Of a stretch of 44,996 nt of DNA, positions 5,474 to 20,331 are shown one piece after another. Below the pieces are notes generated by a model, which had not been told where the DNA came from, did no database searches, and saw only the letters and a program-made list of their open reading frames with translations. The DNA lies in UHGV virus genome UHGV-0278542, one strand, 5' to 3'. Within the stretch, counting starts at the first letter, position 1. Each line of letters begins with the position of its first letter. The position numbers and the translations under genes were made by a program. Source of the stretch: a virus.

Positions 5474-5768
5474 GCTCGTTTTCCTCGATGTAATACAGCA
5501 AGTAACGGCTACCCAAGCCTTCCCATCGCGGGTCCGATTCCCCATCATTATCAATGAAAATAAGGTCTCCCTTAAATCCAAGGTAGGAATATCTTACCAT
5601 CTTATTCCCATGCAGACATGGAACGCCCTGCATAATTGGGACTTCATTAACAGTTAAATCCATGTACATAAAACTCTGTCGCTGAACAAGTTTTATATTA
5701 CATTGCTGACCAGCCAGACTTACCGAAATGGACTGAGATTTGCTGGGAAGAACAGATACTGTAATCAT
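5466..5768 (-). CDS. Small tail protein, hypothetical
   Basis: 100-aa ORF, ATG at 5768 overlapping upstream stop (ATGA). Confidence 0.4.
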   Translation of the reverse strand: MITVSVLPSKSQSISVSLAGQQCNIKLVQRQSFMYMDLTVNEVPIMQGVPCLHGNKMVRYSYLGFKGDLIFIDNDGESDPRWEGLGSRYLLYYIEENELV

Positions 5769-6580
5769 GTACTCGCCTTAACTATATTTTTTGCAATATC
5801 TGCCGCTTTTTTTGTTGCGCTGTTTGTGACTTCGAGTATTGGTTTGGATACCGTATCAAGAGCACTCTGGAATTCAGTCTTGATTGTGTCTGAAATTTTT
5901 CCAGTGATTCCGCCAACAGATGATTTCAGTGATGACCATGATTTACTTAGTTCATCGACAGTGGACTCCCTGGCTCCGCCGTTGGTTATTTGCGGATCAA
6001 CGCCTACCTCCCCCTGTGACTTGTTGTTATCCGTTGGCTTCTGTTCTGACTGAGAGCCAGAGAGGATAACCTCCATTTGCTGAATGACCTCCTGAAAATC
6101 AAGATAAACCGTCAGAAGAGTCACCCCTTTTTGAGAGTTAACTTCGTAATAGTGGTCAACAAGGTCGAAACTCTCCAGAGTTTCCTTTGGCGTTTCAATA
6201 TCGTATGTTTTTGCAGAGGACAGCATCGTTTTGATTGTGTTCAGCGTGCTGTTCTGGCTTGTGAATGTGAGATCGAAAATATTCGGGATATTGCCGGAAA
6301 AACCAGTAAGACCATTTACGATGATTGCGCATCTTACCCTGGCGGGTTCTTTAACTTTGTTGATGGACTGGTATTTCCCTTTCTCCACCGGAGCGTTTGT
6401 TATTTGCGCCCTGCCACTTGGCTGCACGGATGCCATACCACTGAACTCAAGAGCAACCTCGCCAGTTTCCCTGTCACGAATCACATACTGAGGATGCAGA
6501 ACGCTGTCGATGATCGAAAGCGGAGAGCCACCACCGATAGCATTGAATATGTCTGCTGTGTTTAAATCGATTATGCCCAT
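5765..6580 (-). CDS. Tail protein, hypothetical (Mu gp43-like position)
   Basis: 271-aa ORF, ATG at 6580; first gene after the ant cassette in the tail operon. Confidence 0.45.
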   Translation of the reverse strand: MGIIDLNTADIFNAIGGGSPLSIIDSVLHPQYVIRDRETGEVALEFSGMASVQPSGRAQITNAPVEKGKYQSINKVKEPARVRCAIIVNGLTGFSGNIPNIFDLTFTSQNSTLNTIKTMLSSAKTYDIETPKETLESFDLVDHYYEVNSQKGVTLLTVYLDFQEVIQQMEVILSGSQSEQKPTDNNKSQGEVGVDPQITNGGARESTVDELSKSWSSLKSSVGGITGKISDTIKTEFQSALDTVSKPILEVTNSATKKAADIAKNIVKAST

Positions 6581-6636: not shown

Positions 6637-7566
6637 TCAGTAGTTATGTACTGAAGGAGGTAATTCTTTATTCTTAAGTCTCATCCATGCGGAAAGATTC
6701 GTTGGTCCGTCTGGCTCATTGATATCAACATCTCGTGTGTGGTTTATTAAAACGTCTCTCGCCATTCCGATAACATACGAGAACTCATGACCGTAGTCGT
6801 AGCATCTGCCGGAATAGTTCGATTGAATTTGTTTTAGCGCCGGATACAGTTCGCGGAATAATGCCTGTGAGCGGTTGGCATAATCCCATAGCCATACAAG
6901 GCTGTTTGCTTCTTTTGCAGAAAGCTCGTTGGTTTTCTTCTCTTGTTTGCCGATGAACTCACCTTCAAGTGGAACTCGAGCTGCAAGTGACAGTGCTTCG
7001 GCAAACTGCTCCTCACTGATTTCTTTGTATGAACACCCAAAATGAGATTTCAGTGACGACCACATGGTGATCATCGCCTGCGCCTGTTTTTCTTTTGGCA
7101 GAGACTGACCGCGACTCATGACGAGTTGTTTAATAGCTTCCTGCTGTTCAGTGGTGATTTTACCCGGCAATGCCTTTTTAGCTTTGCGCGGGTTAACCAC
7201 ATGGCCTTTAGTCCAGTATTCGTATAGCACATCGTCACACTCTTCCTGATACTGGATTACCTTGTCGCGGATTTCAGGGCGGACTTTGTTAGGACTGATG
7301 GTTTGCAGCCAACCTGCAAGTTTGCGTAAAGCAAGACAGATAACCAAACGACGCTGAGTATCGCCGGGGAGCTGAATCATCATTTCGATGATGCAGGTCT
7401 TAAATCTCTCCATCAACTTGCGGTGTTGAGACTGCCAAGTCATACCCATTCCTTCAACGATAGGTTTCATTGGGGTATACGGTTCGCCGTTGTGATTGAC
7501 AACATAAAGCTCTGCGCCGTGGAATGGTACGTTGATAGTAGATACCGCTGTTGCTATACTTTTCAT
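6637..7566 (-). CDS. ant: Antirepressor Ant-like protein (AntA/KilAC-type N-terminal region)
   Basis: 309-aa ORF; N-terminal sequence [34 protein letters not shown] resembles phage antirepressor N-domains; preceded by an Arc-like gene and divergent from an Mnt-like gene, as in P22 immI. Confidence 0.65.
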
Positions 7567-7632
7567 GTCAGTTTTTCCTCAATACTTACTGGCGATTTAA
7601 GCCCTAGATACTCGCAATATCTGGGGCTTTAC

Positions 7633-7779
7633 TCATTCTGGACAAACAATCCCGTCCTTAGCTACCGACTCCTTAAGCCTCCTCAACACCTCATTGCTGA
7701 ATGACCGATCATCCTTTTTCGCTGACTGCTCCAAAGCTTTTTCGAGCCATTCTGGCATCCTTAACGTTTTTACTTTCAT
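7633..7779 (-). CDS. arc: Arc-like ribbon-helix-helix repressor (48 aa; below the ORF-track size cutoff)
   Basis: Hand-translated MKVKTLRMPEWLEKALEQSAKKDDRSFSNEVLRRLKESVAKDGIVCPE; AGGAG 6 nt upstream of ATG; directly upstream of ant. Confidence 0.5.
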   Translation of the reverse strand: MKVKTLRMPEWLEKALEQSAKKDDRSFSNEVLRRLKESVAKDGIVCPE

Positions 7780-7884
7780 TTTCGCTCCTTTGGTATGCGG
7801 TACGCATACATAGTATGTAGGTACGCATTGATAGTCAATAGATACCTACATATCCTGTGGTAAAAAATTATTCAGGATATGCTG
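7780..7884. promoter_or_regulatory. Divergent promoter/operator region between arc-ant and the mnt-like gene, with nested palindromes
   Basis: Inverted repeats atgtaggta...tacctacat and attga-tag-tcaat, plus a repeated gtacgcat element, in a 105-bp intergenic region. Confidence 0.5.
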
Positions 7885-8127
7885 ATGTCTGAACGCAGGT
7901 ACAAGAACCCACAAGTTAATCTTCGACTTCCTGTGGAGATAAAGGATCGCCTAACCGCGTTAGCTGAGGCGAATGGCAGATCTTTAAATGCAGAAATGGT
8001 TGCAGCTCTAAGTGCATGGGCAGGAGAAAATAAACATGTTCACTCGCTTAGCCTTTCTTCCTTAACCGAAAGATTAATAGCTCTTGAGAGAGAGGTTGCA
8101 GCCATTAAGGAAGCAAACATCAAGTAA
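7885..8127 (+). CDS. mnt: Mnt-like ribbon-helix-helix repressor
   Basis: ORF track 7879-8127; N-terminal NLRLPVEIKDRLTALAEANGRSLNAEMVAAL resembles P22 Mnt/Arc RHH motif; about 80 aa; divergent from arc-ant. Confidence 0.55.
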   Translation: MSERRYKNPQVNLRLPVEIKDRLTALAEANGRSLNAEMVAALSAWAGENKHVHSLSLSSLTERLIALEREVAAIKEANIK

Positions 8128-8150: not shown

Positions 8151-8618
8151 ATGGCATGTCTTAGCAAGGAAGAAAATGAAATCATCAATGTAGAATTTAA
8201 AAAAACATCAGCAGATGAGTTGTTGATAATCAAGAAATTAATTATCGATGTTAAGAACCATAAAGGGCTATACCAAGATGTCGTAAAGCATGGTCGAAAC
8301 CTGTACAACTCAAAGAATAACATCATTCAAGAAACCGGACTTAGCGAAAAGATATCTGGTCGTCTTGCTATGATCCTTTGGTCTATCACTAATCCTGAGG
8401 TTGAGGCGGCACGCCGATTAAAGATTAAGATCACTGAGGCAACGTGGGTGTTTGAGGATTTCCTATGTAAACATCCCAGTCACCGCAATCTCAATGGCAA
8501 AAAGTACTCTATTCGTAAAGGAATCAGGATCGGCTTTTTCAAGCACATCCACCCAGGACAACTTGTAGGGTGTGGATGTTTATCTAGACCCATAATTCCA
8601 GGATTAAAAAACTCTTGA
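8151..8618 (+). CDS. Hypothetical protein with a MuF-like C-terminal motif
   Basis: 155-aa ORF, GAGG RBS; C-terminus HPSHRNLNGKKYSIRKG...HPGQLVGCGCLSRPIIPGLKNS parallels the C-terminus of the head-morphogenesis protein at 19513-20331 ([17 protein letters not shown]...[22 protein letters not shown]). Confidence 0.5.
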   Translation: MACLSKEENEIINVEFKKTSADELLIIKKLIIDVKNHKGLYQDVVKHGRNLYNSKNNIIQETGLSEKISGRLAMILWSITNPEVEAARRLKIKITEATWVFEDFLCKHPSHRNLNGKKYSIRKGIRIGFFKHIHPGQLVGCGCLSRPIIPGLKNS

Positions 8619-8627
8619 TAGTAGTAA

Positions 8628-8867
8628 TTAATTTCCATCAAGAGCAGCAAGCAGCGAAGTGCGCAACTCTTCTTGAGTCATTTTCAACTCTCCGCTCTTT
8701 GTTTGCCGGCGAAGATCATCGACCACCATTTTGGTGAATTCTGTAGGGGTAATCTCACTCTCGATAGAGACCTCTCTCCCGAGAAGCAATGCTATCCCAC
8801 CCAAAATTAGGCTAAAGGCATTACCAATATTTTTTAACGATGGAGTGTAAACGATGGAAAGTTTCAT
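8628..8867 (-). CDS. Hypothetical small protein (79 aa, one hydrophobic segment); alternative to the full 161-aa track ORF
   Basis: C-terminal part of track ORF 8628-9113 reads protein-like from the internal ATG at 8867; the N-terminal part looks like antisense of the + gene. Confidence 0.3.
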   Translation of the reverse strand: MKLSIVYTPSLKNIGNAFSLILGGIALLLGREVSIESEITPTEFTKMVVDDLRRQTKSGELKMTQEELRTSLLAALDGN

Positions 8868-9204
8868 TTTTACCGTCCGACAAGAAGATGTTGAATCATT
8901 GAACGAAGCAATGCAAACATGGGGGCTAGAACATAAGCCACATGTAACACTAGCATTCGACAGCTCGTCTCCACCAGAGTGGGTGCAAGTAATTGTTAAC
9001 GGAATAACAAGCCCTGCGGCAATGAATTGTTTATCTGCTGCAATTGGATATTTCGTCGCCAGAAACAAGGGGAAAAAGCTAGAGATACAAACTAACGACG
9101 GGAAAAGATTCATCGCTGAAGGGTTTAATCATCGTGAAATAAGCGCCTTACTGAGCGAATGTCAAGATCATATCGTTGTCAATAATGATGACAAGCCCAC
9201 CTGA
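8854..9204 (+). CDS. Hypothetical protein
   Basis: 116-aa ORF with GGAG 9 nt upstream of ATG; AT-rich cargo region. Confidence 0.4.
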   Translation: MESFIFTVRQEDVESLNEAMQTWGLEHKPHVTLAFDSSSPPEWVQVIVNGITSPAAMNCLSAAIGYFVARNKGKKLEIQTNDGKRFIAEGFNHREISALLSECQDHIVVNNDDKPT

Positions 9205-9270
9205 GTAGGCATTGCGTGTTTTTTCTTCATTTAATGGGTAGAATCATCAAAACAGCACAAGGATTATAAT

Positions 9271-9729
9271 ATGAAGAAATCATATATTCGTTATGCCATT
9301 CCTATTGTCTCCTCTTGGCTATTCTTAGCTTCGGCGTATGGAGAAGAAGGACTTATTCCACCAGATCATGTCACCAAGGAAGCTGAGATTGCTTGCATTG
9401 GGTTGGCTCAAAAATACGCTTCTGAATCAAGAAGATTTAACCCTGATGACATGAAAAAATTCGTCATGGAACAAGCGAATGATTGTCGAGTTTTTTTGTC
9501 ATACTCAATCTTCAAGCCCAATACTGCAAGCATAATTTTAGATAAGATTGAATCTGACTATGGTCGTTTTACTCCAGATGTATCCGAGGAAGAGGCCAAG
9601 TTCAGAGACTATTTTCACAAGAACATCATGTCAGGTGCACAAGAAGCAGCTAAAGATAAGGCTTTTAGAGATGAAATGGTAACACTTGGAGGTTTTGCCA
9701 TTGCTTCGCCATCCCATCGCAACTTTTAA
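9271..9729 (+). CDS. Hypothetical secreted protein (N-terminal signal-peptide-like segment)
   Basis: 152-aa ORF; N-terminus MKKSYIRYAIPIVSSWLFLASAYG; AAGGA RBS; convergent with the tape-measure gene. Confidence 0.5.
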   Translation: MKKSYIRYAIPIVSSWLFLASAYGEEGLIPPDHVTKEAEIACIGLAQKYASESRRFNPDDMKKFVMEQANDCRVFLSYSIFKPNTASIILDKIESDYGRFTPDVSEEEAKFRDYFHKNIMSGAQEAAKDKAFRDEMVTLGGFAIASPSHRNF

Positions 9730-11505
9730 CTATCTAACACCACTTGAAAATGCCTGATTTACTGATGATCTGCGATTCAACTCCTTAAATCCTTCGGTTA
9801 ATTTTGAGGATTGATCCGTTTTGGCAATTACCTTTACCTCTCCTATGTGCTGGCTGTTGTAATTGTTAACAACGCTTTGGGCATAGGATTGGTTTGCAGA
9901 TCCATTAGCCAATCTTTGCTGGGTTTGGTAGTACGCGGCATTGCTATTTTTCGTTGGGTTACCATAATCAAGACCCCGCCTCCAATTTGAATAACCTTCA
10001 TGTCGTGCCATGTAGGAACTTAATTTAGCCATAACAGACGGGTCTGAAAGGTCGAGTTTTTCATTTGCATCAACCCCCATTGCCTTAGAAACTTGCTTTA
10101 TGTATGAGGCGGTATCGTTTTCTGAAGGTGGAGCCCATTTCGTAATAATACCGTTTATAGTGTTAAGTTTATCTCTTGTGTAATACAGAGATAATTGCCT
10201 TCTTGCTGCTTCCCATCCTGACTCATCATCAGTGTACTTCGCAAACCCTCCAGAATCCCTACCGGCATTACCTTTAGTTCTAAGATTTAATGGGTTGAAG
10301 TTTCTATCCGCTCTTGTTTTCCCTGATGGATTTGTTGGTACATCCTGATTTGGATCTTCATATTCAATATTGAATAATCTTTCGAACCAGTGCTGCTGAA
10401 AAAACCAAGGCCTTTGTGCATCAGGAACATCTTTATACTGGTCTTGTACCATCTGCCCAAAAATACCAACAGCACCGATTAATCCCAGCTTGCTTCCTAA
10501 CCCCTTGCCGCTAAGAAGGGCCATGGCAGCAAGAATGCCCAATGCGTTTCCAGCGCCACCAACGGCTTTAACAAAACCATCAATACCTGTACTCAGGTTC
10601 CTGAAGAACCCAACAATGTCACCCTTGTTGTTTTTCAGCCACTCTAAAAACTCCTGTTCTGCTTTAAGCACTTCAGGGCCAAATGTAGCCATTAATTCTT
10701 GTTTAACCTGAGCAAATTGCGAGTCAAGGGCTTTAGTCGTAGCAAGAATATTACGCTGTGCTTCTTCCTGCTCTTTGGTCATCTGCCATCGTTTTTCTTC
10801 CTCAGATACCATCTGCACAGCTTTTCCGCTTTTAATATCCCCGGCAAGATTAGGGTCATAACCAAAAGCAGAAAGCACTTGCATTAACTGTTTCTCGTTA
10901 TGGTTCTTCCCATATTTCTGAAATTCCGCCAGAGCATCTTCAGATTTACCTCCAAGCTTACTAATATCAATGCCTGTTCTCGCTCCAGTTGTTAGTAAAT
11001 TCTGAGCCTCCGGTGTAAGTCCGCCGAAAATTGTTGGGTCTTCTATATTGGCAAGCGCCATCCTGGCGCTCATCTGAGCCCCAAGGAACGCGCCGCCGTT
11101 CTGACCAATTCGGGAGAATCCATACTGAGTACCAAGAACGTTACTGGCGCTTGTTCCAAGCATTCTCCCCATATTACTGGCTCTTACAATTGACTCCGAA
11201 GTACTTTCAAATGCACGGTGAATGCCAATTGCTACGGCAGTCAACACACCGCCAACAGCCACAAAGCGTGTCGAAAGCCCCAAAAAACCATTAAATGAAG
11301 CAGTCAACCCTTTCATTGCAACAGCAGCTTTGTCGGTCTCCTTAGCCGTTTTGGACATTGAGGAGGTTGTTGACCTTTCTATCGCAGATGAAGATCTCTC
11401 TATTTCGTTTTTAAGGTCTTGTGCTTCCTGCTTTACTTTCCGTTTTCCATTCAGGAATTCATCGGCCTTAATTGTGACCTTGTAGGCCAACTCATTGATA
11501 ATCAT
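9730..11505 (-). CDS. Tail tape-measure protein, putative
   Basis: 591-aa ORF after two small chaperone-like ORFs and downstream of sheath/tube genes; coiled-coil N-terminal half. Confidence 0.55.
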   Translation of the reverse strand: MIINELAYKVTIKADEFLNGKRKVKQEAQDLKNEIERSSSAIERSTTSSMSKTAKETDKAAVAMKGLTASFNGFLGLSTRFVAVGGVLTAVAIGIHRAFESTSESIVRASNMGRMLGTSASNVLGTQYGFSRIGQNGGAFLGAQMSARMALANIEDPTIFGGLTPEAQNLLTTGARTGIDISKLGGKSEDALAEFQKYGKNHNEKQLMQVLSAFGYDPNLAGDIKSGKAVQMVSEEEKRWQMTKEQEEAQRNILATTKALDSQFAQVKQELMATFGPEVLKAEQEFLEWLKNNKGDIVGFFRNLSTGIDGFVKAVGGAGNALGILAAMALLSGKGLGSKLGLIGAVGIFGQMVQDQYKDVPDAQRPWFFQQHWFERLFNIEYEDPNQDVPTNPSGKTRADRNFNPLNLRTKGNAGRDSGGFAKYTDDESGWEAARRQLSLYYTRDKLNTINGIITKWAPPSENDTASYIKQVSKAMGVDANEKLDLSDPSVMAKLSSYMARHEGYSNWRRGLDYGNPTKNSNAAYYQTQQRLANGSANQSYAQSVVNNYNSQHIGEVKVIAKTDQSSKLTEGFKELNRRSSVNQAFSSGVR

Positions 11506-11720: not shown

Positions 11721-12124
11721 TCTCCGGCGATCGTTAAAAAATCAAAATTAACTTTAAATACCTTATCCATTACCTGACGAATGGTTGATACCTCTTCAAA
11801 GTCGACAGGCTTCACGGTTCGCACCTGTCTGCTGCCTTCGTGTGTAATCACAATTTGCACAGTTGACATCAGGCGTTCACGAAGTTTTCTGGCGACTTCC
11901 GGCGATGCGGCAGAAAGAACATTCAGACCAAGGGTGGCAAGGCCAGCGCACCCCATGGCAATCACATCAGCAGGGATACCAGAGAATCCCGATTCCCCCA
12001 TGGAGCGGAATAAATCCTGTGCCAGTTCGTCGGCATCCCATGCCGACATCTCTGTGATAATGAACTCTTTCCCATTGTCGCGATTATCGTCTTCCACGAT
12101 AAAGGGGATTTCTTTACGTGCCAT
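11717..12124 (-). CDS. Tail assembly chaperone, putative
   Basis: 135-aa acidic ORF directly upstream of the tape-measure region. Confidence 0.45.
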   Translation of the reverse strand: MARKEIPFIVEDDNRDNGKEFIITEMSAWDADELAQDLFRSMGESGFSGIPADVIAMGCAGLATLGLNVLSAASPEVARKLRERLMSTVQIVITHEGSRQVRTVKPVDFEEVSTIRQVMDKVFKVNFDFLTIAGE

Positions 12125-12558
12125 CAGATAGTGCTCCGTGTTACAGACTCAAAGTGAAATACTGCCGGGCGTGGTTTCAGTACGCGCCGACCCGGAGGGG
12201 TTGGAGTCCATGTATAAAGAACCCCGTTCACAAAATTCCACTTCGCGCCGAGAGCTGGAACTGTAAGCACCGCATTACACTGAAACGCTGAAATTGCGGT
12301 TCTCTCCGCTGCATACCAGTCATCAATCAGCGAGCCAGCATTGGATGTTGGCATCAGGTTGATGGTGAACTCTGTCGGGTTAAAGATAAAACCAGCATGG
12401 TATTTACCGTCCGCTGACATCATGTCTTCTTTGTTCTGTAACGCACCAGTTTCAAACATGTTATCAGCTGCGTAGTCGTCAACATCAAAACCGCCAGGGT
12501 AGTAAGCGGGCACGACGATTCGCAGCTTACTGTTTGCCGAGGTAATATCGATAGGCAT
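12124..12558 (-). CDS. Tail tube protein, putative
   Basis: 144-aa ORF immediately downstream of the sheath-like gene. Confidence 0.5.
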   Translation of the reverse strand: MPIDITSANSKLRIVVPAYYPGGFDVDDYAADNMFETGALQNKEDMMSADGKYHAGFIFNPTEFTINLMPTSNAGSLIDDWYAAERTAISAFQCNAVLTVPALGAKWNFVNGVLYTWTPTPPGRRVLKPRPAVFHFESVTRSTI

Positions 12559-12569
12559 GATTTATTCCC

Positions 12570-14060
12570 TTATAAAATCGCGGTTGAGGACATCGTGATG
12601 GACTGAATAAGTTGCCCATCGACATAATAAAAAATGACACCTTTCAGATCTCGCTCAATGCGTGCAGAGCCTGACTGTGTCGGGATGTACAGGAACCAGC
12701 CCTGTGAATACAGCGTCGATGAGATATCTTTTCCAACTGTGTTATTCACAATTCTGGTTTGCGCATTATCAAGTTTCACGCCACGCTGAATAGCCCCGAA
12801 ATTGAGAGCCTGTTCAGCAACATCAATAACAGCGGCAGACACTGCGCCGTATCCTGTCTCATTGAACGGGTAAGACTGATTATTGGTGAACAGGTTGGCA
12901 AAAGCACTAACCAGATTGGCATTAATCCATACCTGATTAATAAAACTGTCCAGCCATACAAACTTGCCAGTAATGGCACCATCAGATGCGTACTGCGCCA
13001 TTGTTTTGTTCAGGCTGTATGAGCCGTAGAAGTTGTAACCATTTGACTTCAGTGCCTGAGCGGTCGCCAGATCGCTTACGTTGGGTGCTAACCCTGAAAA
13101 TCCACGGAACTTGAACGAGATACGCCCACTGGTGCGTGCAAAATCCACGGATGCAGCATATGCCAGTGCTGTAACGCCATACAGGTATGTTCCGTACACC
13201 GGAAAAATGTTCTCGTAGCCATTTGCCACAACCACTTTCTGCACAAAGCAATTGGCATTATTGGCTACCGTTCCTGCTGAAGTGGTGTCGTGAACAACAT
13301 ATCCAAACCGGTTTTTACTGCTGCTTGCCCATGCGCACAATTCTGTTTTCTGGTCATCGGTCAGTTCGACCAGCGAGTTAAACAGGATCCAGTTCTGGTT
13401 GACGTTGATGATGTTGTTCATCGTGTCTGTCAGCGTTACCGCATCAGAACCCGGTGATACAATCGCTGCGGAATCCTGCGTCAGTAACAACCCGGTAGCC
13501 AGAGCGCCAGCAGAAGCATAAGACACTTCACTCTCTGCGCCAGTAGTGGCAGAGCGAATGATGAATCGGTTAGCGATTGGCAACCATTCAACCACCACCT
13601 TGCTTGCACCAATTCCAACCTGCAACTTGGACGCAATGTCACTAAAACTTGTGGCTGTGGACAAATCAATTGATGTGCTGGTAGTCGACTCACCGTCAAT
13701 GGAAAGGGTGATTGTTCCTGCTGGAATCGCTTTCAGTGTTGCCAGGGCAACACCTTTCAGGTTGCCGGACAGAAGATACCCAGCCACTGGTGAAGTAACA
13801 ATACGATACATCAGCAGTTCACCAGGAATAACGGATGAATTTTCGTATCCGTTAAAATACTGTTGTGCTGCGAGGAATTCTTTCGATTCACTCCCCATCA
13901 AAGCTGATACATCAGATGAGGAGTAATAAGATTGTACCGCGCCAACCGGGATAAGCTCGTTATCGGTCAACATCAGGCCGTTAGCATCAACCGCAGAACC
14001 GGCAGGCGTAACGACATTGGGCGTGATATTAAAATCTACAGATAAAGGGATTGTGCTCAT
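12570..14060 (-). CDS. Tail sheath protein, putative (Mu gpL-like size)
   Basis: 496-aa ORF followed by tube-like gene and tape measure; implies a contractile tail. Confidence 0.5.
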   Translation of the reverse strand: MSTIPLSVDFNITPNVVTPAGSAVDANGLMLTDNELIPVGAVQSYYSSSDVSALMGSESKEFLAAQQYFNGYENSSVIPGELLMYRIVTSPVAGYLLSGNLKGVALATLKAIPAGTITLSIDGESTTSTSIDLSTATSFSDIASKLQVGIGASKVVVEWLPIANRFIIRSATTGAESEVSYASAGALATGLLLTQDSAAIVSPGSDAVTLTDTMNNIINVNQNWILFNSLVELTDDQKTELCAWASSSKNRFGYVVHDTTSAGTVANNANCFVQKVVVANGYENIFPVYGTYLYGVTALAYAASVDFARTSGRISFKFRGFSGLAPNVSDLATAQALKSNGYNFYGSYSLNKTMAQYASDGAITGKFVWLDSFINQVWINANLVSAFANLFTNNQSYPFNETGYGAVSAAVIDVAEQALNFGAIQRGVKLDNAQTRIVNNTVGKDISSTLYSQGWFLYIPTQSGSARIERDLKGVIFYYVDGQLIQSITMSSTAIL

Positions 14061-19512: not shown

Positions 19513-20331
19513 CTATTTATTTTGTAGTCCGGGGATGATTGGTGACCACGTGCACCGACAGTTGATAGCCTCGCCGGGTAACACCCATTCACCATCGAGA
19601 TACAGCCCCTTATCGAGGTCGAACTCTTTTCCATCTGCTTTCACGTGGGATGGCCTTGGTTGCTTCCCGGCGTGTGAGTGTCGCCAGATGCCTTTGGTGA
19701 TGCCTAACTTCTTCTGCCGCTCAGACTGAATTACCGCTGTAGCTTTGTTGTTCTGGTCGCGTGCAATCGTCTCGGCGCGTCTGCGAGTAATGCCATATCG
19801 CTTAACCAGTTCATCAGTGAGATAGCCAAGGTCACGACCACGGCTGACAGACTGCATGACTATCGTCTCAACCTGTGTGTGATAGTGTTCAGGTATGGAT
19901 TTAATCAGGTTGACGTTCTCGTTAATGACAGCCTGCATCACGTTTTTAATCTCGTCATTCATCGTGAACTTAACGGTAAAGCCGCCAGCCTTCAGCGCAG
20001 AATGAAGAGAGACATCAGTATTGCGCAGCGTCTTATCGACGAAGCGATCTGCCAGTTTCTTGGCAAGCTCATTGAACTTGCTTTCCCACTGCTTTCCGAG
20101 CTTAGCCAGCCTGCGCTTTAACTCATCTGCCGGACTGGCATCCATCGCCATGCTGTCTTTGTATGCAGCCTCAAGCCAGTACCGGTAAGACTTATTCATC
20201 TCACTGACCAACTTGAGAAGCTCAGATCGATACCACTCATGAACTCCGGCGTTAGCTCTGACTGGACGAAGGGTTTTCCGGGTCTTCGAATCCTTCTTCG
20301 ATGGACTCGTTTTCGTACTCTTCTTCGTCAT
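19513..20331 (-). CDS. Head morphogenesis protein, MuF/SPP1 gp7-like
   Basis: 272-aa ORF immediately after the portal gene; C-terminal HxH...NCRC motif typical of MuF-family minor head proteins. Confidence 0.6.

Follow-up and report, generated by a model that had tools for sequence, protein, structure and literature searches.

Three orphan genes beside the tape-measure stop codon of a contractile-tailed prophage: a candidate envelope-level exclusion protein and a separate divergent cassette

The gene for HK97 gp15 is a moron adjoining the tape-measure gene, and in type VI secretion systems (T6SS) peptidoglycan-hydrolase effectors are paired with periplasmic immunity proteins. Among the closest described envelope-level systems, T4 Spackle (gp61.3), a disulfide-containing helical bundle of the periplasm, inhibits the T4 tail lysozyme (PMC7677548), T4 Imm binds the T4 tape measure protein (TMP) (bioRxiv 10.64898/2026.03.06.709160), the exclusion exerted by HK97 gp15 and TP-J34 Ltp is overcome by TMP changes, and SieA is a ~160-aa inner-membrane protein with three predicted transmembrane (TM) segments (both PMC10883804). 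The subject of the present analysis is a block of three small genes, p79, p116 and p152, at positions 8,628 to 9,729 of the virus genome UHGV-0278542, where p152 lies directly against the stop codon of the TMP gene. The whole stretch of 44,996 nucleotides (nt) is referred to as the window; it is a prophage with its late operon on the minus strand. Two kinds of function relevant here are already known, namely envelope-level exclusion encoded by prophage morons and the inhibition of a muralytic tail domain by a periplasmic protein; the proteins p152, p116 and p79 themselves are new and non-homologous. The features on which the comparison rests are as follows, with dN/dS standing for the ratio of non-synonymous to synonymous substitution rates.

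8628..8867, minus strand (late-operon direction): p79, 79 aa; from dN/dS and an open frame beside p116 in every p116 locus examined
8854..9204, plus strand (antisense to the late operon): p116, 116 aa; from dN/dS, homolog alignment and a phrog_12509 match (1.5e-7)
9195..9210: hairpin GCCCAC-CTGA-GTAGGC at the mosaic junction, over the p116 stop codon; from alignment upstream of p152 genes
9236..9263, plus strand: -10-like box TGGnTAnAAT (TAGAAT at 9239-9244) and AAGGA ribosome-binding site (9259-9263), conserved upstream of p152
9271..9729, plus strand: p152, 152 aa; from alignments, an AlphaFold2 model, charge and dN/dS
9730..11505, minus strand: TMP, 591 aa; phrog_873, phrog_2013 and phrog_2276, sited after the tube and chaperone genes
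9946..10425, minus strand: Enc34/PHA02564-type muralytic patch of the TMP, aa ~361-520; from PDB matches

Gene content and mosaic structure of the block

An earlier note on this DNA, made from the letters alone, had placed three open reading frames (ORFs) in the block, and their coordinates, the divergent overlap of the 79-aa and 116-aa frames and the p152 stop abutting the TMP stop were all confirmed. In comparison with diverged homologs, all three ORFs displayed an excess of differences at the third codon position, with dN/dS of 0.14-0.29 for p79, 0.08-0.20 for p116 and ~0.06 for p152, and in an almost identical prophage of E. coli the NCBI pipeline PGAP also annotates p79 and p116. The three ORFs are real genes, and purifying selection acts on each of them. 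Homology to ordinary structural proteins, which the earlier note had named as counting against its reading, was not found for p79, p116 or p152 in Pfam and PHROG scans.

The block had also been described as AT-rich, which holds to a moderate degree: its GC content is 0.411 (p152 0.397) compared with 0.459 for the window and 0.487 for the late genes. As in other morons, the flanking genes are adjacent in relatives and the base composition is distinct. A string of genes co-oriented with the mnt-like repressor gene upstream of the block comprises a 155-aa ORF, p116 and p152, and p79 lies on the late strand.

In a megablast comparison with complete E. coli genomes, a mosaic junction was located at ~9193-9212. 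The left part (mnt to p116) was found without p152 in four E. coli genomes, and the right part (p152 with its 60-nt leader) was found without p79/p116 in four others, so that each cassette is present in 4 of 5,426 complete genomes and the two genome sets are disjoint. The p79/p116 cassette and p152 are separate mosaic modules and not one unit.

The hairpin at this junction has a perfect stem with an upstream A-run in relatives and is degenerate in the window; judged from its sequence, it reads as a minus-strand terminator. The hairpin with its A-run also marks the left edge of the p152 cassette in loci L002, L004, L006, L018 and L024 of the survey described below, where its upstream neighbour varies among p116, a DUF2513 gene, an Arc gene and a MuF paralog. 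In the window and in L007 it covers the stop codon of the upstream ORF (KPT-stop / KTT-stop), and it may be likened to the 'boundary sequences' annotated in CUS-3.

p152 and the tape-measure lytic domain

The favoured explanation, in which p152 acts in envelope-level exclusion and p116/p79 form a separate cassette, is held tentatively, with somewhat less than even confidence in it as written; for envelope-level exclusion by p152 in general, confidence is about even. The N-terminus of p152 reads MKKSYIRY, AIPIVSSWLFL and ASA followed by YG, and a signal peptide is predicted over residues 1-22. The signal-peptide-like character pointed out in the earlier note is kept in every homolog down to 25% identity, while the sequence itself is not. 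With n, h and c regions and an AXA site, p152 is predicted to be exported via Sec. It carries a single cleavable N-terminal hydrophobic segment and no conserved lipobox or outer-membrane anchor. The mature protein (~14.7 kDa, about 130 aa) is acidic (isoelectric point, pI, 5.2), Cys42 and Cys72 are invariant across the family, and the AlphaFold2 model is an all-helical bundle with a mean predicted local distance difference test score (pLDDT) of 84.

No match to p152 was found in Pfam, PHROG, PADLOC, NCBIfam, PDB or BFVD, and PDB sequence profile searches with the p152, p116 and p79 families gave chance-level matches only. The family is small, comprising 10 clusters at 90% identity from E. coli, Citrobacter, Enterobacter, Salmonella, Yersinia ruckeri and Edwardsiella. 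An exhaustive profile search among 50%-identity representatives of 1.84 billion proteins gave 8 matches, 7 of them genuine; the eighth, P0034, is probably spurious and likely due to chance, and a Flavobacterium match from a genome-contig scan for distant relatives was rejected as spurious. Neither p152 nor p116 is present in isolated phages in INPHARED. The p152 gene is restricted to this phage lineage and was not found in non-phage contexts. In every recovered context, including relatives at 32-39% identity, it is convergent beside the TMP stop. The spacing is 0-3 nt in most loci, with exceptions in L057 (10 nt) and L002 (81 nt), and in the window the p152 TAA stop (9727-9729) directly abuts the TMP TAG stop (9730-9732, other strand), with 0 nt between them.

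The gene is opposite to the late operon and co-oriented with mnt. Its upstream -10-like box and AAGGA site are kept in loci with 70-99% p152 identity and in L018, and we infer that the box is a p152 promoter.

The TMP, which PHROGs labels lytic tail protein / tape measure, carries a muralytic domain at the end next to p152. TMP residues 397-507 match PDB entries 9vvp_L (1.5e-13) and 7q47_A, 'Endolysin' (3.8e-6). Entry 7Q47 holds the catalytic domain of an endolysin (family PHA02564) from the Hafnia phage Enc34; this domain is all-helical, lysozyme-like and probably an N-acetylglucosaminidase, with Trp79, Tyr95 and Glu131 important for catalysis (PMC8943055). TMP residues W457, Y468 and E503 align with these three residues, and the TMP end facing p152 is read as muralytic on the strength of these matches. 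The domain is basic (pI 9.4).

The gene position touching the TMP stop was compared over about 90 loci (80 IMG/VR loci fetched with the tube protein, plus earlier loci). The distance between the TMP gene and the Dit-like tail gene ranged from -4 nt (no insert) to ~4950 nt, and the junction is therefore an insertion hot spot; the spacing of the two genes is -4 to +2 nt in L091, L098 and L099 and 71 nt in L100, and ~3.1 kb of inserted DNA separates them in the window. An export/membrane signal (signal peptide, lipobox or TM segment) was observed in the gene adjacent to the TMP stop in 63/72 loci, compared with 17/140 other gap ORFs of at least 60 aa (Fisher p 5e-28). At the level of protein clusters (c), the corresponding values were 15/19 for this slot and 6/29 for other gap genes (p 1e-4). 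This enrichment for exported and membrane proteins favours an envelope-level role of p152.

The slot is filled by at least 15 families without detectable mutual similarity. These include the p152 type (c4), c7, c15, c23, c26, c30 and c53, lipoproteins (c28), the two-Cys families c2a (~152-156 aa) and c2b (~157-159 aa) together with c2a-PAPAPA-c2b fusions, and small 2-TM proteins on the TMP strand (c3, c27, c64 and c66). In the slot proteins of L046, L065, L071 and L089 (272-287 aa), a (PA)n linker connects two two-Cys domains, one of them helical and c2a-like, the other c2b-like, and elsewhere these domains are separate, alternative occupants of the same slot. PHROGs gave no annotated function for the nine slot representatives scanned. 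Families c4, c2a, c7 and c15 all combine a signal peptide with a Cys-x(25-35)-Cys helical hairpin; their descent from one diverged superfamily is unproven, with hhalign probabilities of 3-12% for c4 against the others and 41% for c2a against c7.

Bacteriophage morons such as bor and lom encode envelope proteins with host-directed roles. By the same token, the slot proteins, p152 included, might be general periplasmic lysogenic-conversion or fitness factors (stress, host interaction, virulence) unrelated to phage entry, at a TMP junction that is merely permissive. The hot spot also takes immI modules, insertion sequence (IS) elements and MuF paralogs, the slot families are mutually unrelated by profile comparison, and an identical c2a is paired with two lytic domain types, all of which suit this explanation. 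It leaves unexplained, however, why the export/membrane signal is concentrated in the gene touching the TMP, why p152 is confined to one phage lineage, and why lytic patch and neighbour are associated as set out in the following comparison; on balance it is considered unlikely.

The TMPs of the surveyed loci carry either an Enc34-type or an SLT-type lytic domain. An Enc34-type TMP was found in 13/13 p152-type loci (plus the partial locus L018), and p152 was found in no SLT locus. The TMP genes of the window and of L025, L034 and L036 are 96-100% identical in DNA except for nt -700 to -250 before the stop. In this lytic patch the identity is only 52-76%, and the neighbour gene is swapped as well, c2a taking the place of p152. 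The 250 nt between patch and neighbour are 88-100% identical (96-100% without the last 50 nt). The same two-patch pattern was observed again for the SLT patch of L027 versus L028 and in the L079/L080/L077 group. Among locus pairs with TMP N-termini at least 97% identical, patch identity and neighbour identity were associated (counts 20/11/5/37, odds ratio 13, p 4e-6), the pairs not being independent of one another. The dN/dS of the lytic patch (0.06-0.20) is 3-10 times higher than that of the TMP N-terminal region (0.01-0.05). A coupling between slot protein and lytic domain is suggested by these results; it is not established and not strict.

As a separate observation, the lytic domain is exchanged as an internal TMP cassette: allelic variants of the Enc34 type occur, and even Enc34-type and SLT-type domains are found on one backbone with identical N- and C-terminal ends. 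Neither this cassette exchange nor the positional rule of an exported protein touching the TMP stop was found described in the literature searched.

In the favoured explanation, p152 would be made in the lysogen from its own small transcription unit and exported by Sec, and it would probably reside in the periplasm as a disulfide-stapled acidic helical bundle. There it would most likely disturb related phages on their way in, at the step of crossing the envelope. More specifically, the guess is that p152 attaches to the Enc34-type muralytic domain, basic in charge, at the C-terminal end of the ejected TMP; this target is possible, with confidence well short of even. In this way the lysogen would be shielded against superinfection, or against damage done to its envelope by its own progeny, and a matching inhibitor would be favoured because a prophage-carrying cell meets its own progeny most often.

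Several points weigh against this explanation. No sequence or structure likeness of p152 to Spackle, Imm, SieA, gp15, Ltp, Cor or lysozyme inhibitors was detected. The candidate promoter consists of the conserved -10-like box with a poor -35 region, and no terminator was found between p152 and the TMP gene in a consensus scan. The signal-peptide calls of the survey come from a crude, simple heuristic and not from SignalP. With regard to the coupling, the lytic patch still averages a dN/dS well under 1, the compared backbones also differ by 3-8% elsewhere, and the lytic patches of L006 (p152-type) and L077 (c23) are 96% identical. An identical c2a lies beside an SLT-type TMP in L011 and beside an Enc34-type TMP in L048 and L094, with the same TMP ends and backbone, and a strict pairing of lytic domain and neighbour was rejected for c2a on this comparison. 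The occurrence of p152 only with Enc34-type TMPs could also be plain vertical linkage of adjacent genes.

The cor gene likewise lies in the tail-gene region, in phi80 and N15. Exclusion by p152 at the level of adsorption was weighed too, with p152 hiding or altering a receptor of the outer membrane in the manner of Cor or T5 Llp: p152 is exported, lysogen-oriented and located in the tail-gene region, and the slot lipoprotein family c28 gives a faint N-terminal Cor match (E 0.008). The missing lipobox and outer-membrane anchor of p152, however, and its conserved linkage with the 3' end of the TMP gene and not with fibre or receptor-binding genes, speak against it, and action at the receptor is regarded as very improbable.

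Returning to action of p152 at the envelope-crossing step, the closest likeness is with T4 Spackle. Both are small exported alpha-helical bundles with a cysteine pair, an acidic protein faces a basic putative target, and the proposed action is periplasmic, on a muralytic domain delivered by a contractile tail. The differences are that no sequence or fold match exists, that mature p152 has ~130 aa compared with 75 aa for Spackle, that Spackle is an early gene of a lytic phage whereas p152 is lysogen-oriented in a temperate prophage, and that Spackle targets the T4-lysozyme-fold domain of the gp5 spike whereas the putative target of p152 is the PHA02564-type C-terminal domain of a TMP. With HK97 gp15, T4 Imm and TP-J34 Ltp, p152 would have in common that phage-encoded envelope proteins act in TMP-linked exclusion. 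In contrast to these, p152 is predicted to be soluble in the periplasm, without membrane anchor or lipobox, no homology was found, and the host phage here has a contractile tail.

The layout also resembles that of T6SS effector-immunity pairs, which serve here as an analogy and not as homologs: a muralytic domain delivered by a contractile machine lies next to a small signal-peptide gene, and both are highly polymorphic and change places as cassettes. In the present case, however, pairing is not strict, the 'effector' is part of a virion protein, and binding is only putative. The two suggestions made in the earlier note thus fared differently in their parts. For a sieA-like envelope exclusion, the envelope-level role is favoured by the slot enrichment, but homology to SieA or to known exclusion and defence proteins was not found. 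For a toxin-immunity pair, no evidence appeared among the small genes themselves, and the effector-immunity likeness lies instead between the TMP muralytic domain and its periplasmic neighbour.

The p116/p79 cassette

The genes p79 and p116 overlap head-to-head by 14 nt (8854-8867). A p79-like frame with the same 14-nt overlap lies beside p116 in every p116 locus examined (tblastn or direct translation), and in all of them p79 has the direction of the late operon and p116 the opposite one. The p116 loci comprise at least 4 cargo arrangements, and the cassette occupies two different slots among the tail genes. At 49% p116 identity, in L013-L015, it lies between the sheath-initiator and baseplate genes and the p79 frame is open. 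In L088, p79 is 68% identical compared with 31% for p116, and in L016 the p116 frame itself is broken. The conserved core of p79 extends from E38 to Q55 (E38, T40, E43, F44, K46, D50, D51, R54 and Q55).

p79 is short and without a family (no Pfam, PHROG, PADLOC, NCBIfam or PDB-profile match), its first codons lie across the ribosome-binding site and start of p116, an overlap that alone could conserve the sequence, and several of its database versions lack part of the N- or C-terminal end. It was therefore asked whether the p79 frame is open by chance, as part of the p116 leader or of an intergenic region. The codon-position differences ([12,9,27] and [16,9,32]) and the dN/dS given above, which was obtained over the non-overlapping part, contradict this, as do the frame remaining open at the 49% level of p116 identity and in another slot, the higher conservation of p79 than p116 in L088, and the PGAP call. 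A chance frame is considered scarcely probable. The earlier description of p79 as a possible membrane-segment protein is not convincingly borne out: its hydrophobic stretch has a Kyte-Doolittle (KD) hydropathy of 1.94 over 17 aa in the window, but in homologs the value is 1.2-1.5 and the stretch contains Arg or Lys, so it is not a conserved TM helix.

For p116, the best-conserved part is a central small-residue hydrophobic core (TSPAAMNCLSAAIGYF-RNKGKK) with the invariant residues S53, P54, A55, A56, C59, A62 and G65. The central segment has a hydropathy of 1.1-1.5, with charged residues in some homologs. Helices are predicted at residues 40-70 and 93-104 and strands at 75-79 and 85-90, and the low-confidence AlphaFold2 model (pLDDT 52) was too poor for a structure search. 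No PADLOC match was found, and the only family matches are phrog_12509, of unknown function, and a sub-threshold match to EACC1. EACC1 is a stand-alone domain with a TM-like helix bearing a small-residue patch, alpha+beta flanks and a caspase-like protease partner (PMC7159879), and recent work showed that it forms pores from a latent state, with a size of ~13 kDa (bioRxiv 10.1101/2025.11.14.688446). Four p116 homologs match the EACC1 profile PF19953 colinearly, residues 42-103 against profile positions 41-103 of 107, with E values of 0.008-0.1.

An EACC1-like nature of p116 is thus weakly suggested, as a lead and not as an assignment. The likeness consists in a stand-alone protein of ~115 aa with a conserved small-residue central helix and alpha+beta flanks. 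It is weakened by the best match (E 0.0084, 16.5 bits) lying below the gathering score of 23.6, by the window's own p116 giving no EACC1 match, by the poor quality of the p116 model and by the neighbourhood: no caspase-like protease gene was found in any p116 locus, the neighbours being p79, p152 or other secreted proteins. In place of the protease, the partner is a divergent 79-aa gene, and EACC1 belongs to actinobacterial and cyanobacterial conflict systems, whereas p116 is part of a moron in Enterobacterales phages.

The cassette might be a self-contained toxin-antitoxin or abortive-infection unit, an EACC1-like pore former with a small regulator, and as such the main defence of the block in place of p152. 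The obligate co-occurrence of the two genes with a fixed head-to-head overlap across 30-100% identity would fit such a unit, as would the fixed orientation to late transcription in every p116 locus examined and the colinear sub-threshold EACC1 matches of four homologs, with fitting size and small-residue helix. The EACC1 scores are, however, below threshold and correlated among the homologs, no caspase-like protease is present, the central hydropathy of p116 is low and interrupted by charged residues in some homologs, no PADLOC match was obtained, and p79 has no recognisable fold or family. Such a unit as the main defence is accordingly rated improbable. Under the favoured explanation, p116/p79 is probably an independent membrane-directed moron with its two genes expressed in opposite phases. 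p116 may be an EACC1-like protein, latent and membrane-active, that is produced in the lysogen, with p79 as its late-expressed partner.

An extended minus-strand ORF of 161 aa (8628-9113) was considered in place of p79 and rejected: conservation of the p116 frame extends down to 31-49% identity, which favours p79 plus p116. A sigma-70-like site (TTGTCA-16-TATGAT, 10/12) lies antisense in the 3' end of p116 at 9167-9194 (-); RNA starting from it would be antisense to the whole of p116 and sense for p79. As a p79 promoter this site was dropped, as it is not conserved in p116 homologs.

A wider proposal, speculative and quite improbable, would regard the TMP lytic domain and its adjacent gene as the phage-tail counterpart of T6SS effector-immunity pairs. 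The at least 15 unrelated periplasmic and membrane families would neutralise the muralytic or channel-forming ends of incoming TMPs and co-diversify with the swappable lytic cassettes, and p116/p79 would be a protease-independent EACC1-like membrane-killing switch silenced by late transcription. If envelope-level exclusion from this slot were true, more than 12 non-homologous families would join the very short list of characterised Gram-negative envelope-level superinfection-exclusion proteins, and the TMP lytic end of contractile-tailed temperate phages would be a recurrent exclusion target. An exported protein touching the TMP stop codon would then provide a simple finding rule for prophages, and the slot proteins would be possible natural inhibitors of Enc34-type and SLT-type muralytic enzymes. 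Even if it were wrong, three real orphan genes and a cargo hot spot would have been cleanly annotated.

Phage setting and the P22-type immI module

The surroundings of the block are listed below.

5765-6580, minus strand (late operon): Dit-like tail gene, followed by baseplate genes
6637..7566, minus strand: ant, P22-type antirepressor (Pfam P22_AR_N 1e-45, P22_AR_C 6e-30)
7567..7633, plus strand: sar-like antisense RNA, sub-threshold (Rfam RF00262, full model length)
7633..7779, minus strand: arc-like repressor (Pfam Arc 1.6e-5)
7879..8127, plus strand: mnt-like Arc-family repressor (Pfam Arc 2e-10)
8151..8618, plus strand: truncated MuF paralog, 155 aa (phrog_324, head morphogenesis, 4e-9)
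12124-12558, minus strand (late operon): tube gene, with chaperone genes between it and the TMP gene
12570-14060, minus strand (late operon): sheath gene

The virion genes are E217-like, with Pfam matches to E217_gp31_N, E217_Gp32, Pam3_gp18, Sheath_initiator and Baseplate_J (in relatives), and the phage is therefore contractile-tailed (a myovirus) and not P22-like. The comparison with P22-like phages drawn in the earlier note holds for the cargo, which lies by a P22-type immI module where P22 has sieA, and fails for the virion. The sar-like RNA scores 28.7 bits against a gathering score of 43 (E 0.007) and lies between arc and ant as in P22. The mnt-like region has 80% DNA identity to the CUS-3 mnt region, and the mnt-like gene heads the lysogen-oriented gene string on the plus strand. 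Divergent promoter-like sites were found by a promoter scan beside mnt at 7828-7856 (+) and 7838-7810 (-). With ant, arc, mnt, the divergent promoters and the sub-threshold sar, a P22-type immI seems to be complete in a non-P22 virion background.

The likeness to P22 immI/sieA thus comprises ant, the sar-like RNA, arc, the divergent promoters, mnt and a lysogen-oriented cargo downstream, antisense to late read-through. It differs in that no cargo protein resembles SieA, that p116 and p79 are without a robust TM segment, and that the module lies between the TMP and Dit-like genes of a myovirus and not between gene 16 and gene 9. A paper on mEpimmI coliphages was set aside, as it concerns an unrelated siphovirus group.

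The ORF upstream of the cassette had been called MuF-like, which is borne out: residues 45-154 of the 155-aa ORF align with the C-terminus of the MuF-like head-morphogenesis protein that the phage itself encodes at 19513-20331 (-), with 26% identity across 110 residues and E 7e-10, and a PIIPGL(K/Q)N end is common to both. The family (cluster c6, 152-170 aa) is a repeated moron in the TMP-Dit gap of many relatives, with or without immI. From this resemblance, the paralog could be a lysogen-expressed decoy that disturbs head assembly of superinfecting relatives.

In L088 (~11979-13019) and L095 (~11958-13070), IS-type transposase/TnpB-like genes lie directly after the TMP stop, which is consistent with a junction that tolerates insertions. 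HNH endonuclease genes are absent from the window and occur at varied points of the tail cluster in some relatives, namely between tube and sheath on the opposite strand in L004 (9338-9832), beyond the sheath in L008 (10802-11284) and before the TMP gene in L016 (1811-2401).

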